Source: Shigella phage Shfl2. Taken from it: 64,000 nt of DNA. A program made the translations under genes and the position numbers. Below are positions 1,918 to 54,874 of the stretch, piece by piece; positions within the stretch are counted from its first letter, which is position 1, and each line of letters opens with the position of its first letter. Under the pieces are notes generated by a model. It was not told the DNA's origin. It did no database searches and saw only the letters and a list, made by a program, of their open reading frames with translations. The stretch lies in the sequence record HM035025, one strand, 5' to 3'.

Positions 1918-2121
1918 TTAATTCATATTACGCTTAATAACTTCAGCAACTTCTAGCAGTTCATCTTTAGTTGCGGTGTCGGATTGAATTTTATCTCTAA
2001 TATCTTTAAAGCGGTTTTTAAATTCTTCGGCTTCTCCCATATCGAAAAAGCGTTGAATGATTCTATATTCTCGATGAACTGCTTTATCAAAAAGTTCTAA
2101 ATTTACTTTATATGATTTCAT
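1918..2121 (-). CDS. small conserved ORF upstream of rIIA (rIIA.1-like)
   Basis: 67 aa ORF at the position of T4 rIIA.1, between gene 39 and rIIA. Confidence 0.55.
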
Positions 2122-2146: not shown

Positions 2147-2176
2147 ATTATACCACATCCTTGTGGTAAAGTAAAC
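2147..2176 (-). promoter_or_regulatory. T4-type early promoter (-35 GTTTAC / -10 TATAAT) reading into rIIA.1-rIIA
   Basis: Minus strand reads GTTTACT-17 nt-TATAAT; the spacer holds the palindrome CCACAAGGATGTGG; the -35 overlaps the gene 39 stop codon. Confidence 0.55.
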
Positions 2177-3996
2177 TACTGGCTCATCCATTCTTTACGA
2201 AGGTCAGCATTATCTCCCATGAGCATTTCAAAAAGCTCTTTCCAATTCTCAGGAAGTTTAACAACATCATATACTGGGTTTTGAATCATCTCACGATATT
2301 CAGATTTTTCCAAAGAGCCAAGTCCCTTAATATAACGGATGCTATGTTTAGGTAGAGCATCTTTGGCACTCTCATATTCAGCGACTGTATAAAACCATTC
2401 TTGTTTTTTACCGACCTGAGCGATGATTACAGGAGTTTTGACAAAGCGAATTCGTCCTTGCTCAAACAGTTCTGGCCAATTACTAAAAAACCCGAGCAGA
2501 GAAGGATAAATGCTTCCTAGACCATCATGGTCAGCATCAGTCATAATAGCAATATTATGATAATTCAAGTTTTCAGCTTTTTCACCGAGAACTAATCCAG
2601 TGATTGCGCAAATATCAAATAGTTCTTTGTTTTTAAGCATATCAGCATATGACATACCCCAACTGTTGAGAACTTTACCGCGCAATGGATAACCACCGTG
2701 AAGTTCTTTATCACGAACATCAATAAGATATCCGATAGCCGAATCACCCTCGGTTAAGAACAATGTAGTATCAGCATCTTTACCACAAAGATTCGCTTTG
2801 ATATGTTTATGAACCTTTGCCTTAGAAGCCTTTTTAGCTGCTTTAGTTTCTGCTGCTTTTTCTGCTGCCAATTTACGAGCTAATGCTGCTTCAATAATTG
2901 GCATCAAAATTGCTTCATTATTTAGAATAGCACGTGAAATCTTTTTAGCATCAAGTTGAATATGACTACGAATTTCACCAAAAGGAGAAGTAAGTCGTTC
3001 TTTAGTTTGAGAATCAAATCGCATGTTTTTCATATCACGGACAAACATAACGATAGTCAAACATTCTTTGACACGTGCTTTAGTTACATCAATTTTGAAC
3101 TTACGTTTGATTTGTGGAATAAGGTCTTCACAAATATCATCCATAACACAGTCAATGTGATGGCCACCATTCTTAGTGTGAATGTTATTCACATAAGTTA
3201 ATTGACGAAATCCATCTGGTGAACGACCAACCGCAATAGAACAATTTTCTTGTTCTTGAACAATAGCATGTTCATCATACTGTCGTGCATATTTCTTAAA
3301 ATTGCCCTGAACCTTTTTACCATTAAAGGTAAATTGAATATCAGGATAAACAACAGCAAGTGTCTGGAGACGATCTAGTGTAATGTCAAGATAAACTTGG
3401 GACAGCTCATTAGTTTCAAATGACATAAAATCAGGAATGAAAGTAACACGAGTTCCTTTCCATTTTCCTGGAATAGTTTCCCATGATTTATTTTCCATGC
3501 CATTTGAACAACGAACTACAATATTATTTTGACCGTCGCCAGTTTCACCAACAAACATCACAGAAAAAATGTTTGTCAAACTAGAACCAACACCATTCAT
3601 ACCGCCGGTGACACGTTCTTTATCATCACCGAAGTTACCACCTGCTTTTGGAATAGTCCACGCAGCAACAGGACCAGGAATTTCTTCACCGGTAGGTGTT
3701 TTAACCATCGCTTGTGGAATACCGCGACCGTTATCTTCAACTGTTACCTGATTATTTTTAATGTTAACATTAATTTTATTCGCGAATTTAAACTTAGTAC
3801 GAATACCTTCATCTACTGAGTTATCGATAATTTCATCAATAAGCTTAACAAGACCAGGTACATACTGAACACTTTCCCATTTACCAAACAGAAAGCGCTC
3901 ATGCATTTCATTAGCTGAAGAGCCAATGTACATGCCGCTACGCTTTTTGATATGTTCAATATCGCTCAGAATTTTAATTTCATTCTTAATCATCAC
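2176..3996 (-). CDS. 39: DNA topoisomerase II large (ATPase, GyrB-like) subunit, unsplit form
   Basis: 606 aa, starts MIKNEIKILSDIEHIKKRSGMYIGSS; GHKL ATPase motifs (VEDNGRGIP, GxxGxG); a single continuous ORF, unlike the T4 39 + 60 arrangement. Confidence 0.9.
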   Translation of the reverse strand: MMIKNEIKILSDIEHIKKRSGMYIGSSANEMHERFLFGKWESVQYVPGLVKLIDEIIDNSVDEGIRTKFKFANKINVNIKNNQVTVEDNGRGIPQAMVKTPTGEEIPGPVAAWTIPKAGGNFGDDKERVTGGMNGVGSSLTNIFSVMFVGETGDGQNNIVVRCSNGMENKSWETIPGKWKGTRVTFIPDFMSFETNELSQVYLDITLDRLQTLAVVYPDIQFTFNGKKVQGNFKKYARQYDEHAIVQEQENCSIAVGRSPDGFRQLTYVNNIHTKNGGHHIDCVMDDICEDLIPQIKRKFKIDVTKARVKECLTIVMFVRDMKNMRFDSQTKERLTSPFGEIRSHIQLDAKKISRAILNNEAILMPIIEAALARKLAAEKAAETKAAKKASKAKVHKHIKANLCGKDADTTLFLTEGDSAIGYLIDVRDKELHGGYPLRGKVLNSWGMSYADMLKNKELFDICAITGLVLGEKAENLNYHNIAIMTDADHDGLGSIYPSLLGFFSNWPELFEQGRIRFVKTPVIIAQVGKKQEWFYTVAEYESAKDALPKHSIRYIKGLGSLEKSEYREMIQNPVYDVVKLPENWKELFEMLMGDNADLRKEWMSQ

Positions 3997-14774: not shown

Positions 14775-14840
14775 AGTACTCTCCTCTATAAGATAATTCT
14801 ATTATACCATACTCATTTTGGAAAGTAAACCAGTAAAATG

Positions 14841-14865
14841 AAAAAGGACTCCCGAAGGAGTCCTT
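14841..14865 (-). terminator. intrinsic terminator downstream of soc
   Basis: GGACUCC-UUCG-GGAGUCC hairpin followed by a U-run on the minus-strand RNA. Confidence 0.65.
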
Positions 14866-25075: not shown

Positions 25076-25312
25076 TCAAATACAAGTAGTAATTACTCCA
25101 GTAGTGCTTACACAGGTATTACCTAATTGAACACCCAACGTTCCATTAGTATTCATATGAAGATTATCATCAATTTTTGTTGATACTTTACCATTCATGT
25201 GAATAATAGTATTAGATTCAATCACATTCTGAGTGTCATTTTCAATATCAATAAATGGAACAGTTGCTAATGCAACTAAACACACTGCTAAACAACCATA
25301 AACAATTTTCAT
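25076..25312 (-). CDS. small secreted protein carried on a repeated promoter cassette
   Basis: Start at MKIVYGCLAVCLVALA (GGAG SD); signal peptide; the upstream 52 nt are identical to the leader of the AAA+ gene at 51.15 kb. Confidence 0.5.
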   Translation of the reverse strand: MKIVYGCLAVCLVALATVPFIDIENDTQNVIESNTIIHMNGKVSTKIDDNLHMNTNGTLGVQLGNTCVSTTGVITTCI

Positions 25313-25377
25313 TTTATTCTCCAAATCCGTATCAGTTGATAGTTGTATAGTACCATGGAAGAACGGGGATGTAAACA
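25305..25377 (-). repeat. repeated early-promoter/5'UTR cassette, copy A
   Basis: Minus strand GTTTACA-17 nt-TACTAT then CAACTATCAACTGATACGGATTTGGAGAATAAAATG; 52 nt identical to 51148-51199. Confidence 0.7.
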
Positions 25378-44458: not shown

Positions 44459-44762
44459 TTTCTTCTCGGTCAAATCGGTGTTTACAATGGCGGCATTTAT
44501 AACGAAGATTACTAGTCTGCCAATGGACCAATTGCACCTGTTCAGTTCCACATTCAGGGCAATTAGGAACGTTTTTAGAAGCCCTTTCGCGACGTTTAAC
44601 CATAGCCATAATGGCATCCCATGCTGGAGGTTTAAAATCTAAATCGTCACAACCATGAATCTTTCCACGCATTTCCATATCATCTTCCTCACCAGCCATA
44701 ATAATTTTAATTAAACTGGAATTACTTGAAGCTGCAATGTCTTCTAATAGACGCTTTTTCAT
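44445..44762 (-). CDS. zinc-ribbon protein
   Basis: 105 aa; CPEC...CRHC pairs. Confidence 0.45.
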
Positions 44763-45688
44763 TTCAATACCTCAATAGCATTACGTAAACCATTTGCTTT
44801 TGCATTAAGAGCTTTTAACAATTTGGTGTGTTCTGCAATTTGGGCTTCAACTTCAATCAAACGAGCATTGAGATATTCGCGTTCTTCACTCAGATTATCA
44901 ACCTTTTCTACTTTAGGCTCTTTTACAACTGTCTTATATGTATTAGGGTTCTTCAGTTTAATTAGAATGCGTGAACTGTATAACATTGAACCATTATCTT
45001 CGGTTTCGTCATACATTTCTACTACATCCATAATTTTTAACATCATGCGGAGTTTATAAGACAACGAACGAATAGTTTTGTTGTGCTTATTAATTTCTTT
45101 AGCTGTCATGGTGCCGAGATTACGTGAGTAATAATAAGGAACCTGGATATTAATTAATACTGATGAACCACCTGGCTTGTGTGTTACTTCATCAGCAATA
45201 ACCCAATCCTTAACATGAACTGTATTTGTACGGTCATCGCCCGCGGTAAATAGTTTGCGAGCATGCTTAAAAAGCATATTCACTTGGTCATTGAATTGAC
45301 AAGCAAATTTATCAGCAAATTTAGTTTCAGGAATGGTAGATAACCAATCAGCCAAATGGGTCTTTTTAACATCGTTAACAATAGTAAATTCAACCAAATC
45401 AGTTATAGATGTCTCAGATTTAATAAAGCTCGGCTTCATAAAGTTTTTAATGTTATCGCGAGCTACAGTAGAAGATAACATACGAGAACGTTTAAACCAT
45501 TGAAGCAAATTGCCCAACGAATGAGAATAAGCGTTTTGAGTATCTTTACAGATATGATTTTCCTGGCCAACATATTGAAGGAAATCACGAAGAATATTAT
45601 TGATTACTGCTCTGTGTCCGATCTGATAATTACGGTGTTTAGTAATAAGACTGTCAAAATAATCAATATAATGTTTACGAGTTTTCAT
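44759..45688 (-). CDS. paralog-array protein 1 (C-terminal coiled coil)
   Basis: 309 aa; starts MKTRKHYIDYF; shares a central block and C-terminal heptad-rich tail with the next three ORFs. Confidence 0.55.
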   Translation of the reverse strand: MKTRKHYIDYFDSLITKHRNYQIGHRAVINNILRDFLQYVGQENHICKDTQNAYSHSLGNLLQWFKRSRMLSSTVARDNIKNFMKPSFIKSETSITDLVEFTIVNDVKKTHLADWLSTIPETKFADKFACQFNDQVNMLFKHARKLFTAGDDRTNTVHVKDWVIADEVTHKPGGSSVLINIQVPYYYSRNLGTMTAKEINKHNKTIRSLSYKLRMMLKIMDVVEMYDETEDNGSMLYSSRILIKLKNPNTYKTVVKEPKVEKVDNLSEEREYLNARLIEVEAQIAEHTKLLKALNAKANGLRNAIEVLK

Positions 45689-45740
45689 ATTCTTCTCACT
45701 TGGTTAATGATTTATACTCCGAGCCATCCCTGGCTTTAAA

Positions 45741-46742
45741 TTACTTAATTAACTGTAAAGCTTGTTCAAGACGATCAAGACGATTAACGGATTCTTCCCA
45801 AATCTTTTTAGCCTGCTCATATTCTTTCTGCGCTTTATTAGAAATTTCTAGAACTTCTTTATAAGCTTTTTCTAGTGCAATAACTTCTGGACGAATTTCT
45901 ACCGGTTCAGGAGAATCATCAAGATTATCCATTAGTTCCTCAAGGGTAGTTTCTTCTTTAGGAGTATTCACAATTTCATCACATTTTTGTTGGTAAATTT
46001 CTTTATCAGTCGGTGAGTACGCACACTTTACTTCACGAAGACTAACTACAATTTTATATCCTTCCCAACCGCATATATTCTTAAAAGGATATGTATGAAT
46101 ATTTTCTACTGTTTCCATACAAAGTAATGCAGTCTCTAACTGACGAGTTATAGTGCTAGCAATTGAGAAAAATTTATTAATATTCTTTTGGTTAGCGTTT
46201 GGTGTAAAAAATCCATAATTCACAAAAATAGCTACTTTATTTTCATCAAGCTCATATTCTTTTACGATAATCATATCAGAAGCCAAAGGATGAATTTGAC
46301 GATAATCACCATAACATAATTTAGAAGCTGATTTTAGAATTTGCTTCTTAAAAAGTCTGAAATTACTAATCCAACGACGAGTAAAAATATTCTCAGGGTC
46401 TTCTTTATTATTAAGATGATAAGAATTAACATCACCGAACCAATTATATCCTACTACATCTTTGGTTCGTTTAATTTCTTTCCCAAAATTACCAAGAATA
46501 TCCCGATTAACCAAATATGAAAGAAGACGAGACTCTTTAAAGGTTTTCTTGATAACATCTTTATCTACACGACTAGAAATTTTACGAATTTCATGAATAA
46601 ATTTAGTAGAAGAAACAATACTTGCATCAACACTATTGAGCCATTGATTGATAATAGAAAGAACGATATTTTGACCAAACATCGGTATAGCTTTATCATC
46701 AATAACGCTATTGAATGATTTGATATATTCGTTACGAGTCAT
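45741..46742 (-). CDS. paralog-array protein 2
   Basis: Start probably MTRNEYIKSF (333 aa); central block RWISNFRLFKKQILKSASKL. Confidence 0.55.
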   Translation of the reverse strand: MTRNEYIKSFNSVIDDKAIPMFGQNIVLSIINQWLNSVDASIVSSTKFIHEIRKISSRVDKDVIKKTFKESRLLSYLVNRDILGNFGKEIKRTKDVVGYNWFGDVNSYHLNNKEDPENIFTRRWISNFRLFKKQILKSASKLCYGDYRQIHPLASDMIIVKEYELDENKVAIFVNYGFFTPNANQKNINKFFSIASTITRQLETALLCMETVENIHTYPFKNICGWEGYKIVVSLREVKCAYSPTDKEIYQQKCDEIVNTPKEETTLEELMDNLDDSPEPVEIRPEVIALEKAYKEVLEISNKAQKEYEQAKKIWEESVNRLDRLEQALQLIK

Positions 46743-46770
46743 ATTAATCTCCTCATTAGAAAGTAAGAAC

Positions 46771-46800
46771 ATTATACCACATCCTTGTGGCGAAGTAAAC
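46771..46800 (-). promoter_or_regulatory. T4-type early promoter, near-identical copy of the rIIA.1 promoter
   Basis: Contains the same 19 nt TTATACCACATCCTTGTGG and AAGTAAACTA as 2148-2180. Confidence 0.55.
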
Positions 46801-47825
46801 TAGTTTAGTGCATTTAGTGCATTGTTCAGTTTAGAACGTTGCTTTGTCAGATTTTGAACCCTTGACTGAGCTTGTTCTAACACCTTTTCAGCTTCTAGCA
46901 CTTCATTGGTCGCTTTAAAGAGTTCATCATCTACTGCCTTAAGAGACTTCTCAATCGCGTCAGCGTGCCATTTTTCTACAGGTTTAAGACTCGGATTTTC
47001 AACAGGAAGAAAATTCACTTTATTGAATTTCCATGCATCATTATTACCTGAACTATACATCCAAAATTTAGAATCGTTTGATGAGCAATTGGATAAATTT
47101 AAATTTAAGTTATCTTGCACTTCTTGCTTTTTCTCTTGCGGGACTTCGTCCTTTCTCAAAAAATCGTATTTAAATGAAACAATCATATCAAGTTCATATG
47201 TTGTCGTATCTAACTTAAATCGTTCAAAACGAGGTAAAATCTTAGATTGAACAGCAGCAACAACATCCATATACTTAAATGCTTCTGTCAACTGTGATTT
47301 AAGGCATTCACAAATTGAAAGAGAATTTTTTGTATTAGGTTTAAAGCTAATTCGTGCAGTTCTATTATTTTCTTTTAATGGTCTTACTTCCATCTGAAGA
47401 GTATAACCATCAAATTTCAGATTCTTTAAGTTAATATCAGAACCTTTTAATCGACTCGCAGTTGATAAAATTTGCTTTAATTGTCTACGGAACAGAGCAA
47501 TAAATCTCCATTCAATACGATAATGATTTGGATTGAAAAATCCAGATGATAAATCGACCTTACTTTGACCAACGCCTTGAACAAATAGAGGATTTTTATA
47601 ATCAATAGTTTTACAGAAATCGGTGAGCTGCTCACGAGCAGTCATTTGTGTAATATACCCCGCTTTACTAAAATGACGTAACCATTCACTGCTATTCATA
47701 TATTTAAAGTGAATATCACGATTAACTTTATCAGGGTCTAAATTATTTTGGCACAAAAATGTCATAACATCACGAGTATAGCTGGCATTACGAATCATAT
47801 CTTCAATTTGAGAACGAGTTTTCAT
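46800..47825 (-). CDS. paralog-array protein 3
   Basis: 341 aa; starts MKTRSQIEDMI; central block EWRFIALFRRQLKQILSTASRL. Confidence 0.55.
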   Translation of the reverse strand: MKTRSQIEDMIRNASYTRDVMTFLCQNNLDPDKVNRDIHFKYMNSSEWLRHFSKAGYITQMTAREQLTDFCKTIDYKNPLFVQGVGQSKVDLSSGFFNPNHYRIEWRFIALFRRQLKQILSTASRLKGSDINLKNLKFDGYTLQMEVRPLKENNRTARISFKPNTKNSLSICECLKSQLTEAFKYMDVVAAVQSKILPRFERFKLDTTTYELDMIVSFKYDFLRKDEVPQEKKQEVQDNLNLNLSNCSSNDSKFWMYSSGNNDAWKFNKVNFLPVENPSLKPVEKWHADAIEKSLKAVDDELFKATNEVLEAEKVLEQAQSRVQNLTKQRSKLNNALNALN

Positions 47826-47833
47826 GGTGTTCC

Positions 47834-48760
47834 TTAAGATTTAAGTAAATCAACAATTTTAATTAACTTTTCACGCTCAGATTTAGCTTTACTACTCAAT
47901 CCAGATAGTCTAAAAATTTCATCATCATATTGTTGAATAGAAATATTCAGCTCTTCAATCTGTTTATTAAAATAATCAATTTGTTCAGAATGTTTTTCGT
48001 TACTACGAACTGGTACAGGTTTTGTAGGCAATGTAGTTGAACTGGATTCATTCGGGCGATAAATTAAAATACAACTTGAACCAATAGGGCATTTTGCACC
48101 AGATGAATATTCTAATGTTCCAGCTTCTTTTAAAACTTCAAAAGCTAAACAGAGATGATGCCCCATATTAACATAATCTGTAGAGTGAGCTCTGATGTAA
48201 TAATCATCGCCACGAATACTAAATTTAAAGCATTTAAGGTCTTCTGTATTATTGGTCTTAAAAATCATTTGTTTATCTAGACCTTTAGCTAATCGAGCGC
48301 CTAATGCTAATAATCGGCGTTGATTTTCCCACAAATCCGCAATCATTTGATCGAATGATAATTTTGGCATCAGTCGACCATAAAGGTCATATCCTTTATT
48401 ATAATTACGAAGAATTTCACTCGCATTAATACGAGACAACGCTCCAATTTTATTAAGGGCTTTCATAATGCGATTAGATAAACTCATTCCAGACCCGTTT
48501 GTTCGCTGCAAATGTTTTTCTAATCCAAATCCAATATCAACTTTAAATTTATCTAAAATTTCGGCATGAACATCTCTGTCAATAACATTCAAATCCAAAG
48601 TTGAGTTAAATCTATGAAAAAATTTATCTGGCTCTGCACTGCGAAATACAGTCCATTCATTCATCATTTTTTTATTAACTAAAGATTTAATTACTGCATT
48701 GACATTATTAATTACTACTGACATATTTTCCTCACTCAATTTCAATTTTACTAAATACAC
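47834..48760 (-). CDS. paralog-array protein 4
   Basis: 308 aa; central block LWENQRRLLALGARLAKGL; C-terminal coiled coil. Confidence 0.5.
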   Translation of the reverse strand: MYLVKLKLSEENMSVVINNVNAVIKSLVNKKMMNEWTVFRSAEPDKFFHRFNSTLDLNVIDRDVHAEILDKFKVDIGFGLEKHLQRTNGSGMSLSNRIMKALNKIGALSRINASEILRNYNKGYDLYGRLMPKLSFDQMIADLWENQRRLLALGARLAKGLDKQMIFKTNNTEDLKCFKFSIRGDDYYIRAHSTDYVNMGHHLCLAFEVLKEAGTLEYSSGAKCPIGSSCILIYRPNESSSTTLPTKPVPVRSNEKHSEQIDYFNKQIEELNISIQQYDDEIFRLSGLSSKAKSEREKLIKIVDLLKS

Positions 48761-50186: not shown

Positions 50187-51155
50187 TTATTTCAGAAGAG
50201 TAACTTCAGCGATTTCTTCCCAACCGTTTTTGTCGGTCATAATAAAGTCAGCAAGATAAAGAGCAGTACGCAGTGAAACATTGCGTAAACGATTAACATT
50301 AACTTTCATCCATGATAATGCTTTATAAGTTTCTTCATCAGAAAGACCGCGCTTTTGCATCATGTCAGTTGAAAGAATAACATCTTCAACCCTGACCATA
50401 ATTTCTTCATTAGTGTGAACACCCAAATCTAAATAAACTGAGCGGGACACTAATGCTTGTAAGTGTGGAGCAAGTTTAGTACCACGGTCTAATTCGCGGT
50501 CAATGTCAACGTTTGTGATAAAAACAATCGTTCCTTTAAATTCAAACTCACGGTCAATGCCTTTTTCTTCTAAGTAAGAAGATGCAGTGCTCCAGCAGAC
50601 TTTACGGGTCTCTCCGGTGTCCAGAGCGGCTTTTAGAAGATTAAGAATGTCCATATCAGAGAAAACATCCACATCATCAATCAAAAGGACAGAATTCTCT
50701 TCACGATTATTCCAAAGCTGCTCATAAAGACCAATACCAGAGATTTTACCATTAATGCTTTTATATTCAATGTATCCAATATCATTTGCTTTATTTAAAG
50801 CTTTATCTAAAGAATACGTTTTACCAATACCTGCTGCGCCAGAGATAATCAATGAACGAATATTTCCGTTAATAATACCATTCGTCATCATTCCCATAAC
50901 ATTAAATCTTTTATTAATGCGGGTTTTCATATCTTCATACGATTCTTTAACTTCTTCAACTTTTACACCATCATATGAAATATCTGATTTGTAAACCCAA
51001 ACACCGCGACGTTTACCGTCAATTTCAACAAAAACTTTACCATCTCCTTGTGCATCTACCGGAGCATTATCTGGGAACCATTCGCCTAAGAGCTCAAAAG
51101 TTCCAGAGATTTCTTTACCGAAGTAGATACCCTTATTGATAGTTACAGTTTTCAT
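50187..51155 (-). CDS. P-loop NTPase, AAA+-like
   Basis: Start at MKTVTINKG (322 aa); Walker A GAAGIGKTY, Walker B VLLIDDVD, sensor-1-like IVFITN. Confidence 0.6.
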   Translation of the reverse strand: MKTVTINKGIYFGKEISGTFELLGEWFPDNAPVDAQGDGKVFVEIDGKRRGVWVYKSDISYDGVKVEEVKESYEDMKTRINKRFNVMGMMTNGIINGNIRSLIISGAAGIGKTYSLDKALNKANDIGYIEYKSINGKISGIGLYEQLWNNREENSVLLIDDVDVFSDMDILNLLKAALDTGETRKVCWSTASSYLEEKGIDREFEFKGTIVFITNVDIDRELDRGTKLAPHLQALVSRSVYLDLGVHTNEEIMVRVEDVILSTDMMQKRGLSDEETYKALSWMKVNVNRLRNVSLRTALYLADFIMTDKNGWEEIAEVTLLK

Positions 51156-51262
51156 TTTATTCTCCAAATCCGTATCAGTTGATAGTTGTATAGTACCATC
51201 CAAATCCGTATCAGTTGATAGTTGTATAGTACCATAAAGCTTTATGCCTGTAAACCGTTTTG
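51148..51262 (-). repeat. promoter/5'UTR cassette with internal tandem duplication (2 x 36 nt)
   Basis: CCAAATCCGTATCAGTTGATAGTTGTATAGTACCAT occurs at 51164-51199 and 51200-51235 and again at 25321-25356; gtaaac -35 at 51251-51256. Confidence 0.75.
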
Positions 51263-54783: not shown

Positions 54784-54841
54784 GATGTTCTCCTCTTTAT
54801 CCGATAGTTGTATAGTACCACAGCTCAAACGGAAAGTAAAC
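54781..54841 (-). repeat. repeated early-promoter/5'UTR cassette, copy
   Basis: gtaaac -35 at 54836-54841 and shared gatagttgtatagtacca block. Confidence 0.6.
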
Positions 54842-54851
54842 CGGTAAAATG

Positions 54852-54874
54852 AAAAAAGTCTCCCGAAGGAGACT
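54852..54874 (-). terminator. intrinsic terminator
   Basis: AGUCUCC-UUCG-GGAGACU hairpin followed by a U-run on the minus-strand RNA. Confidence 0.6.

Follow-up and report, generated by a model that had tools for sequence, protein, structure and literature searches.

Two predicted early promoters that stand 44.6 kb apart in the genome of Shigella phage Shfl2, one before rIIA.1 and one before nrdC.4, most likely form one T4-type early promoter subfamily and share a portable variant of the spacer and extended -10 region that came from a common cassette, a reading to which we give a probability of about 0.78. The repeat behind this reading is real and not due to chance. It pairs two copies of a single T4 early promoter variant that is ordinary, known in kind and portable among enterobacterial phages. 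The pair re-finds a known kind of T4-type early promoter together with the published idea of promoter-cassette shuffling, and in that respect it matters little.

The sequence studied is a 64,000-nt stretch of Shfl2 (record HM035025), referred to as a whole as the window. It is a Tequatrovirus (T4-type) genome segment that starts within rIIA, carries its genes on the minus strand and shares ~97-98% identity with phages including PhiZZ30 and RB3. Window coordinates run ~270 nt behind those of T4 at the rIIA end, and the lag grows toward the nrdC end because T4 has extra insertions. When the window was searched for the 19-mer TTATACCACATCCTTGTGG, exactly two occurrences were found on the plus strand, at 2148-2166 and 46772-46790, and there were still two with three mismatches permitted, against a chance expectation of 0.01. 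In both places a 2-nt gap separates the 19-mer from AAGTAAACTA (2169-2178 and 46793-46802). The result is a direct repeat of 32 nt, 2147-2178 versus 46771-46802, with 30/32 positions identical. The first-pass annotation had placed the block at 2148-2180 and 46772-46804; the repeat itself stands, but those end coordinates lie 2 nt too far. A chance origin of the pair was rejected on the 0.01 expected matches and on the excess spacer identity described below. Both copies are conserved across ~500 Tequatrovirus records, and T4 has the two of them (31/32). The rIIA.1 promoter of the window is identical to that of T4, while the nrdC.4 promoter differs from its T4 counterpart by one base, the spacer of the T4 copy having TTTG.

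Read on the minus strand, the repeat takes the form TAG|GTTTAC-N18-TATAAT with TGTGG as an extended -10. The two sites and the genes around them are as follows.

2147..2176, minus strand: early promoter P(rIIA.1), site 1, a sigma-70-like call with the same sequence in T4
2171-2176, 2153-2170 and 2147-2152, minus strand: -35 GTTTAC, 18-nt spacer TTTACCACAAGGATGTGG and -10 TATAAT of P(rIIA.1)
Near 2140, minus strand: predicted transcription start of P(rIIA.1)
2176..3996, minus strand: fused topoisomerase II large subunit gp39+60, 606 aa, upstream of site 1
1918..2121, minus strand: rIIA.1, 67 aa, downstream of site 1 and followed by rIIA, which starts near 1907
46771..46800, minus strand: early promoter P(nrdC.4), site 2, a sigma-70-like call
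46795-46800, 46777-46794 and 46771-46776, minus strand: -35 GTTTAC, spacer TTCGCCACAAGGATGTGG and -10 TATAAT of P(nrdC.4)
Near 46764, minus strand: predicted transcription start of P(nrdC.4)
46800..47825, minus strand: nrdC.5, 341 aa, upstream of site 2
45741..46742, minus strand: nrdC.4, 333 aa, starting MTRNEY, downstream of site 2

Each site is the best sigma-70-like call in its own region (TTTACT-17-TATAAT, 10/12 consensus matches). In the published T4 early consensus, summarized as GTTTAC...TGGTATAAT, GTTTAC occupies -36 to -31 and a GT-rich/TGn tract stands ahead of TATAAT (Hinton 2010, PMC2988021; Nolan 2006, PMC1524935). At both sites GTTTAC lies at the proper T4-early distance (17 nt to the -10, counting from TTTACT), and the TGTGG directly 5′ of TATAAT is the TRTGn extended -10 motif. 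The earlier description of the two sites as promoters is therefore borne out by the best regional calls, the TG extended -10 and the T4 early consensus, and we treat both as predicted T4-type early promoters, whose activity and start sites we infer from sequence and from the T4 literature. The T4 literature describes an early promoter upstream of rIIA. The distance from the -10 to the start codon is 26 nt for rIIA.1 and 29 nt for nrdC.4, and each gene has a GAGGA Shine-Dalgarno sequence.

The upstream side of each promoter is set by a gene end. The topoisomerase TAG stop (2176-2178) contributes its G as the first G of the -35 hexamer at site 1, and the G of the nrdC.5 TAG stop (46800-46802) is likewise the G of the -35 hexamer at site 2. 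With the stop codon of the preceding gene forming the edge of each promoter, gene and promoter are not separated by an intergenic spacer or a terminator, and on the minus strand neither site has a terminator-like site or T-run. Neither site has an A-rich, UP-element-like stretch around -40 to -44, as the -35 is preceded by the tail of a coding sequence (GGATGAGCCAGTA and GCACTAAACTA) that is not rich in A-tracts; tracts of this type are frequent, but not universal, among T4 early promoters. We expect that unmodified host sigma-70 RNA polymerase would read both promoters in the first minutes of infection, P(rIIA.1) starting the rIIA.1-rIIA transcript and P(nrdC.4) the nrdC.4 transcript, which would run through nrdC.3 and beyond.

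Site 2 had been placed upstream of a gene called paralog 2. By the T4 annotation this is corrected to a position before nrdC.4 and directly after the nrdC.5 stop. The nrdC.4 and nrdC.3 products are weak paralogs (25% identity over 226 aa, E 5e-7). They belong to a run of four adjacent minus-strand genes at 44759-48760, encoding 308-341 aa, that correspond in size and order to T4 nrdC.3 to nrdC.6, and pairwise comparison of these counterparts gave no significant similarity beyond nrdC.3/nrdC.4. Among the early genes of T4, nrdC.5 acts against the Dsr1 defence (Srikant 2022, PMC9391042). At the other locus, the topoisomerase large subunit gene (2176-3996, minus strand) is unsplit, without the 39/60 split, the mobA remnant and the 50-nt translational bypass found in T4.

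If the two sites resembled each other only as members of one promoter family, their spacers should agree no better than those of other pairs. The comparison set was 20 early promoters of the form GTTTAC-N18-TATAAT-like, all taken from the minus strand of the window, giving 190 pairs. The pair of sites 1 and 2 ranks first of the 190, with 28/30 positions identical overall and 16/18 in the spacer; spacer matches across all pairs have a mean of 7.1 (sd 2.4), and the runner-up reaches 13. Under the column frequencies of the family, the probability of at least 16/18 spacer matches is 1e-5, or 0.002 after multiplying by the 190 pairs. The spacer consensus of the window family reads 'at.cc.a...g..TgTGG', with TgTGG TATaAT as its -10 part. 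TGTGG, which forms the right arm of the palindrome described below, and part of the CC are thus generic, and what is private to the pair is the ACA of the left arm and the centre AAGGA. In addition, the spacer block was present in 0/136 generic GTTTAC-N15-TGGTATAAT promoters sampled from viral contigs. The first-pass annotation had asked for the two loci to be aligned, with identity limited to the generic -35/-10 consensus as the outcome that would count against it; the alignment shows identity well past that consensus, and we reject the explanation by generic consensus on the spacer matches and on the absence of the block from generic promoters.

Close repeats between early promoters are found elsewhere in the window, and some are longer. 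The segments 25302-25356 and 51145-51199, at loci 26 kb apart, form a promoter/leader/start-codon repeat that is 98% identical over 55 nt, a closer match than the rIIA.1/nrdC.4 pair. At ~51.2 kb (51181-51235) a 36-nt segment of -10 and leader is tandemly duplicated. The promoters at 25347, 49751, 51226 and 54812 share the beginning TGGTACTATACAACTATC, which is followed by AAC in three of them and by GGA in 54812. The existence of several promoter subfamilies with long repeats suggests that near-identical early promoters are a general property of this genome.

The T4 early (immediate-early) promoters have reportedly been treated by Liebig and Ruger in 1989 and by Miller and colleagues in 2003. 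Sites 1 and 2 share with them the -35 GTTTAC, the GT-rich/TGn extended -10 and a perfect TATAAT, as well as their placement directly before early genes on the early-transcribed strand. Nothing essential sets the two sites apart from this class (reviewed in Hinton 2010, PMC2988021); they are the most similar pair in the family, and the positions they share include non-consensus spacer positions. A second point of comparison is provided by PeSLs, the promoter-early stem-loop cassettes that are repeated in T4-type genomes and serve as module exchange points (Arbiol 2010, PMC2839356; Comeau 2014, PMC4122927). Mapped PeSL crossovers fall between the -10 and the ATG, and the cassettes are described for T4/PST, including the nrdC region (PMC2839356; PMC4122927). 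Like sites 1 and 2, PeSLs are early-promoter cassettes that end in a Shine-Dalgarno sequence and ATG, and they lie at the boundaries of insertions, deletions or replacements, as sites 1 and 2 may do; the PeSL consensus of T4/PST, TTTACW-N17-TAYWAT, fits both sites, and the nrdC region is among the variable regions named by the PeSL authors. However, the promoter of a PeSL is preceded by an AT-rich stretch and a stem-loop terminator, and sites 1 and 2 are without both: here upstream coding sequence runs into the -35, and the sole palindrome lies inside the spacer.

True PeSL-type composites of terminator and early promoter are present on the minus strand at 14801-14860 and 54812-54871, and are 93% identical over 41 nt. 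In these the hairpin GGACTCC-TTCG-GGAGTCC or AGTCTCC-TTCG-GGAGACT is followed by a T-run and then by GTTTAC. The window also has five copies of a GC-rich hairpin of the GGGCC-GAAG-GCCC type (4045, 28247, 30194, 34904 and 38543; 77-95% identical over 22 nt), which probably act between early genes as intrinsic terminators or to stabilise RNA.

We followed the shared block outside the window. In the two copies it reads [A/G]CCACAAGGATGTGGTAT, and across phages it can be written [A/G]CCACA[A/T/C]GGA[T/A/C]GTGGTAT. In a promoter context it is found at the motB|cef junction of Klebsiella T4-like phages, directly after the stop of gene 43 (DNA polymerase) in Karamvirus-like contigs, before several small secreted-protein genes, in a 64-kb contig with a TTGACA -35, and before a helicase gene in Rosemountvirus, which is not T4-like. 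BCU-2 (46.9 kb) was rejected as a non-T4 match, since it is a partial Tequatrovirus record. In T4 and in the window, the motB|cef junction has a different early promoter (window 6434). The same block at unrelated genes, and another promoter at the same junction, indicate that promoter variant and locus are uncoupled. Within orthologous contexts, the nrdC.4 promoter of SholemSchwarzbard is 30/30 identical to the rIIA.1 copy. In RB69, JS98 and CC31, rIIA.1 is not preceded by such a promoter, and extra ORFs lie there between the topoisomerase gene and rIIA.1. In bacterial genomes the 17-mer matched at chance level only, with no enterobacterium among the matches, and we therefore rejected a host motif or host-factor site.

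How strictly the block is conserved depends on how the sequences are gathered. In an alignment of 12 block-bearing contexts the block is invariant and the -35 varied; the block looks invariant there because the sequences were retrieved by searching for it. A comparison anchored on the flanks shows the opposite. The nrdC.4 promoters of the Gaprivervirus phages RZ and SP18 keep GTTTAC and TATAAT and lack the block, with the spacers TTCCAGGGATGGATGGAG and TTCCAAGGATGGAGGGAG, and these orthologues retain only CCA-AGGA-TGG, displaced from the -10. The notion that the block is more conserved than the -35 was accordingly rejected as an ascertainment artefact. Since these nrdC.4 promoters do without it, the block is dispensable for a working nrdC.4 promoter, which argues for a portable variant rather than an obligatory element.

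We hypothesize that the block most likely descends from a common promoter cassette, that short-patch recombination or conversion, as described for PeSLs, carried it to different loci, and that selection favouring a strong early promoter would then have retained it. The repeat, its promoter architecture, the excess identity, the way the block is distributed and the lack of recombinants between the copies are observed; shared descent of the copies and this mode of spread are inferred. With so short a repeat and almost no informative variation, descent and convergent selection are not rigorously separable, and the latter needs to be weighed. On this account the block would be a polymerase-contact element, made up of the TRTGn motif and a spacer read by the zipper at about -24 to -18, that was selected independently as an optimum and not passed on by descent. 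A precedent is the Z-element at -22 to -18 (AACCT in T7A1, AACAT in T7A2), which is contacted by the β′ zipper and can substitute for the -35 (Yuzenkova 2011, PMC3173786). Sites 1 and 2 resemble extended -10/Z-element promoters in having TGTGG before TATAAT and conserved spacer bases at -24 to -18, with the conserved CA-N-GGA at -23 to -18 falling in the zipper contact zone (PMC3173786). Varied -35 hexamers are also tolerated among block-bearing promoters (GTTTAC, TTGTAC, TTGACA, GTATAC and GTTTAT), and the occurrence in the unrelated Rosemountvirus fits independent selection as well. However, the sequence AAGGA at -22 to -18 of both sites has only AA in common with AACCT and AACAT, so that the resemblance is positional and identity with the Z-element was rejected. 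Moreover, the invariance seen in the 12-context alignment is largely due to ascertainment, the unbiased cross-genus nrdC.4 promoters keep the -35 and -10 while losing the block, and neither the 18 other early promoters of the window nor the 136 generic ones have it. Given this, we regard a convergent optimum as clearly unlikely.

A related idea bears on both descent and function. A 17-18-nt block that is identical across genera, with flanks that diverge at once, could reflect a sequence-specific function. That [A/G]CCACA-N-GGA-N-GTGGTAT is either a mobile module, moving in short tracts across genera, or a sequence that is specifically read, and in either case marks a distinct class of early promoter, is in our view doubtful, though not far-fetched. 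If the spacer block did act in a sequence-specific manner, it would give a handle on the differing behaviour of T4 early promoters, which reviews list as unexplained.

The shared spacers also contain inverted repeats.

2151..2168: palindrome TACCACA-AGGA-TGTGGTA, 7+4+7, within the P(rIIA.1) spacer region
46777..46790: palindrome CCACA-AGGA-TGTGG, 5+4+5, within the P(nrdC.4) spacer

The palindrome CCACA...TGTGG that had been noticed in each copy is confirmed, as CCACA-N4-TGTGG is present at both sites. Its description as a stem-loop holds as far as the inverted repeat goes, but the structure is weak, is no terminator and differs from the stem-loop of PeSLs, which lies upstream of the promoter. 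The right arm at site 1 overlaps the extended -10 motif and the first 2 bases of the -10 hexamer. As DNA, the hairpin has a folding energy of -5.9 kcal/mol at site 1 (z -2.5 and -1.8) and -4.4 kcal/mol at site 2 (z -1.7 and -1.4), and folding in RNA context gave z of -1.1 and -1.3 for the two sites. A structured RNA was rejected on these RNA values and on the lack of any Rfam family match in the whole window, and a terminator was rejected because there is none at either site.

We considered whether the palindrome could nevertheless have a function of its own, with ACCACA-N4-TGTGGT serving as an operator through which a dimeric protein co-regulates a subset of early genes, or as a functional hairpin, cruciform or read-through RNA hairpin. 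It is present in both copies, and a palindrome of 5+4+5 form lies at almost the matching position in promoter 51226. In viral contigs the left arm CCACA occurs at the exact position in 16 distinct promoter contexts, with varied loops, so that arms are kept while loops change in environmental phages; control 5-mers of the same composition occur at the same position in 5 and 3 contexts. This 3-5x enrichment of the left arm is modest and comes in part from lineage-specific subfamilies. Against a function stand the weak folding energies and RNA z values given above and the absence of stem covariation, in that three natural variants alter the inner right-arm base (T to A or C) with the left arm uncompensated. 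The conserved centre GGA is asymmetric, and the Gaprivervirus orthologues, as described, hold a reduced form set away from the -10. The motif is also missing from enterobacterial genomes, matches no Rfam family and has no terminator-like T-run, and we know of no DnaA, CRP, FadR/GntR-type, lambda-operator or other box that fits it. A functional palindrome is thus very unlikely, although the left-arm enrichment leaves it a small probability. Palindromes are common in this promoter family, and the analysis gave no positive evidence for a pairing role. Because its right arm coincides with the extended -10 motif, the palindrome appears to be largely a by-product, CCACA on the left being the one arm specific to the variant.

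Stronger inverted repeats (z -2.7 to -3.9) are found at the minus-strand promoters 6434, 19143, 19631, 54000 and 62388. In at least three of these (6434, 19631 and 62388) the -10 hexamer lies within the inverted repeat, as in ACAAGACTA-tggtatag-TAGTCTTGT. Inverted repeats around the -10 would fold only in read-through transcripts or in single-stranded DNA.

The first-pass annotation had proposed that identical promoters at distant loci are substrates for homologous recombination and module shuffling, and that recombinant junctions might be seen at this repeat in related genomes. An active ectopic exchange between the two copies has in its favour 19+10 identical bases in direct orientation, which would be enough for rare recombination in T4, a phage that recombines at patches of <50 bp and even at microhomologies of 2-10 bp (PMC2839356; PMC9391042). 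We built both chimeric junctions, topo-P-nrdC.4 and nrdC.5-P-rIIA.1, and searched them against 50,697 phage records. Neither junction was contiguous in any of the 504 matching records, all of which hold the halves at separate places. The 44.6-kb interval between the copies includes genes 56, 61, 41, 42, 43, 62, 44, 45, 46, 47 and 55, and since these include essential replication and late-transcription genes, a deletion between the copies would be lethal. The reciprocal 44.6-kb duplication would exceed a headful and be too large to package. With a lethal deletion and an oversized duplication, the absence of chimeric junctions is expected, and recombination of the two copies with each other is extremely improbable. 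What survives of the proposal is its general part, the exchange of modules at repeated promoters, which is already published for PeSLs.

One rearrangement was found beside site 1. In the Tequatrovirus FL12, a homing endonuclease gene is inserted between the topoisomerase gene and rIIA.1, and the insert (locus 600-1600) also has an RB69-like topoisomerase end, a terminator and a truncated start of RB69 ORF003c. The junction carries a duplicated 33-nt topoisomerase 3′ end and lies 33 nt upstream of the promoter. FL12 was rejected as a promoter recombinant, since this junction is outside the promoter; the insertion looks like an intergeneric homing/co-conversion scar.

The reading of such promoters as seams along which genomes are shuffled is plausible, and the surroundings of both sites agree with it. 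At site 1, homology with Mosigvirus ends at the topoisomerase stop codon. At site 2, the gene directly upstream of the nrdC.4 promoter varies between genera. T4 and SholemSchwarzbard are ~71% identical over nrdC.5 and nrdC.4, yet they share an 82-nt patch with at most 2 differences (P 4.5e-10) that extends from 2 nt before GTTTAC to ~25 nt inside nrdC.4. Between these two phages the mosaic boundary is therefore at the -35, with divergent nrdC.5 and nrdC.4 alleles flanking a near-invariant regulatory patch. Both promoters thus lie at boundaries of gene content or mosaicism, which is consistent with a role as seams, causation being unproven because intergenic sites tolerate change and regulatory sequence is constrained. 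The uncoupling of variant and locus, together with a mosaic boundary at the -35 beside the anti-Dsr1 gene nrdC.5, is consistent with cassettes that may act as seams for the exchange of anti-defence and accessory genes. A PeSL-type indel is seen in two Karamvirus-like contigs (L011 and L016) that are 96% identical overall: shortly after the gene 43 stop and immediately following the same promoter variant, they differ in the presence or absence of a 212-bp segment. This segment carries a 74-aa ORF between the promoter and a lipoprotein-like gene, and it is flanked by an imperfect 23-bp leader/RBS repeat. The ribosome binding site in L011 (CAAATGAGGATATTGAAATGAAAT) is the same as that of T4 rIIA.1.
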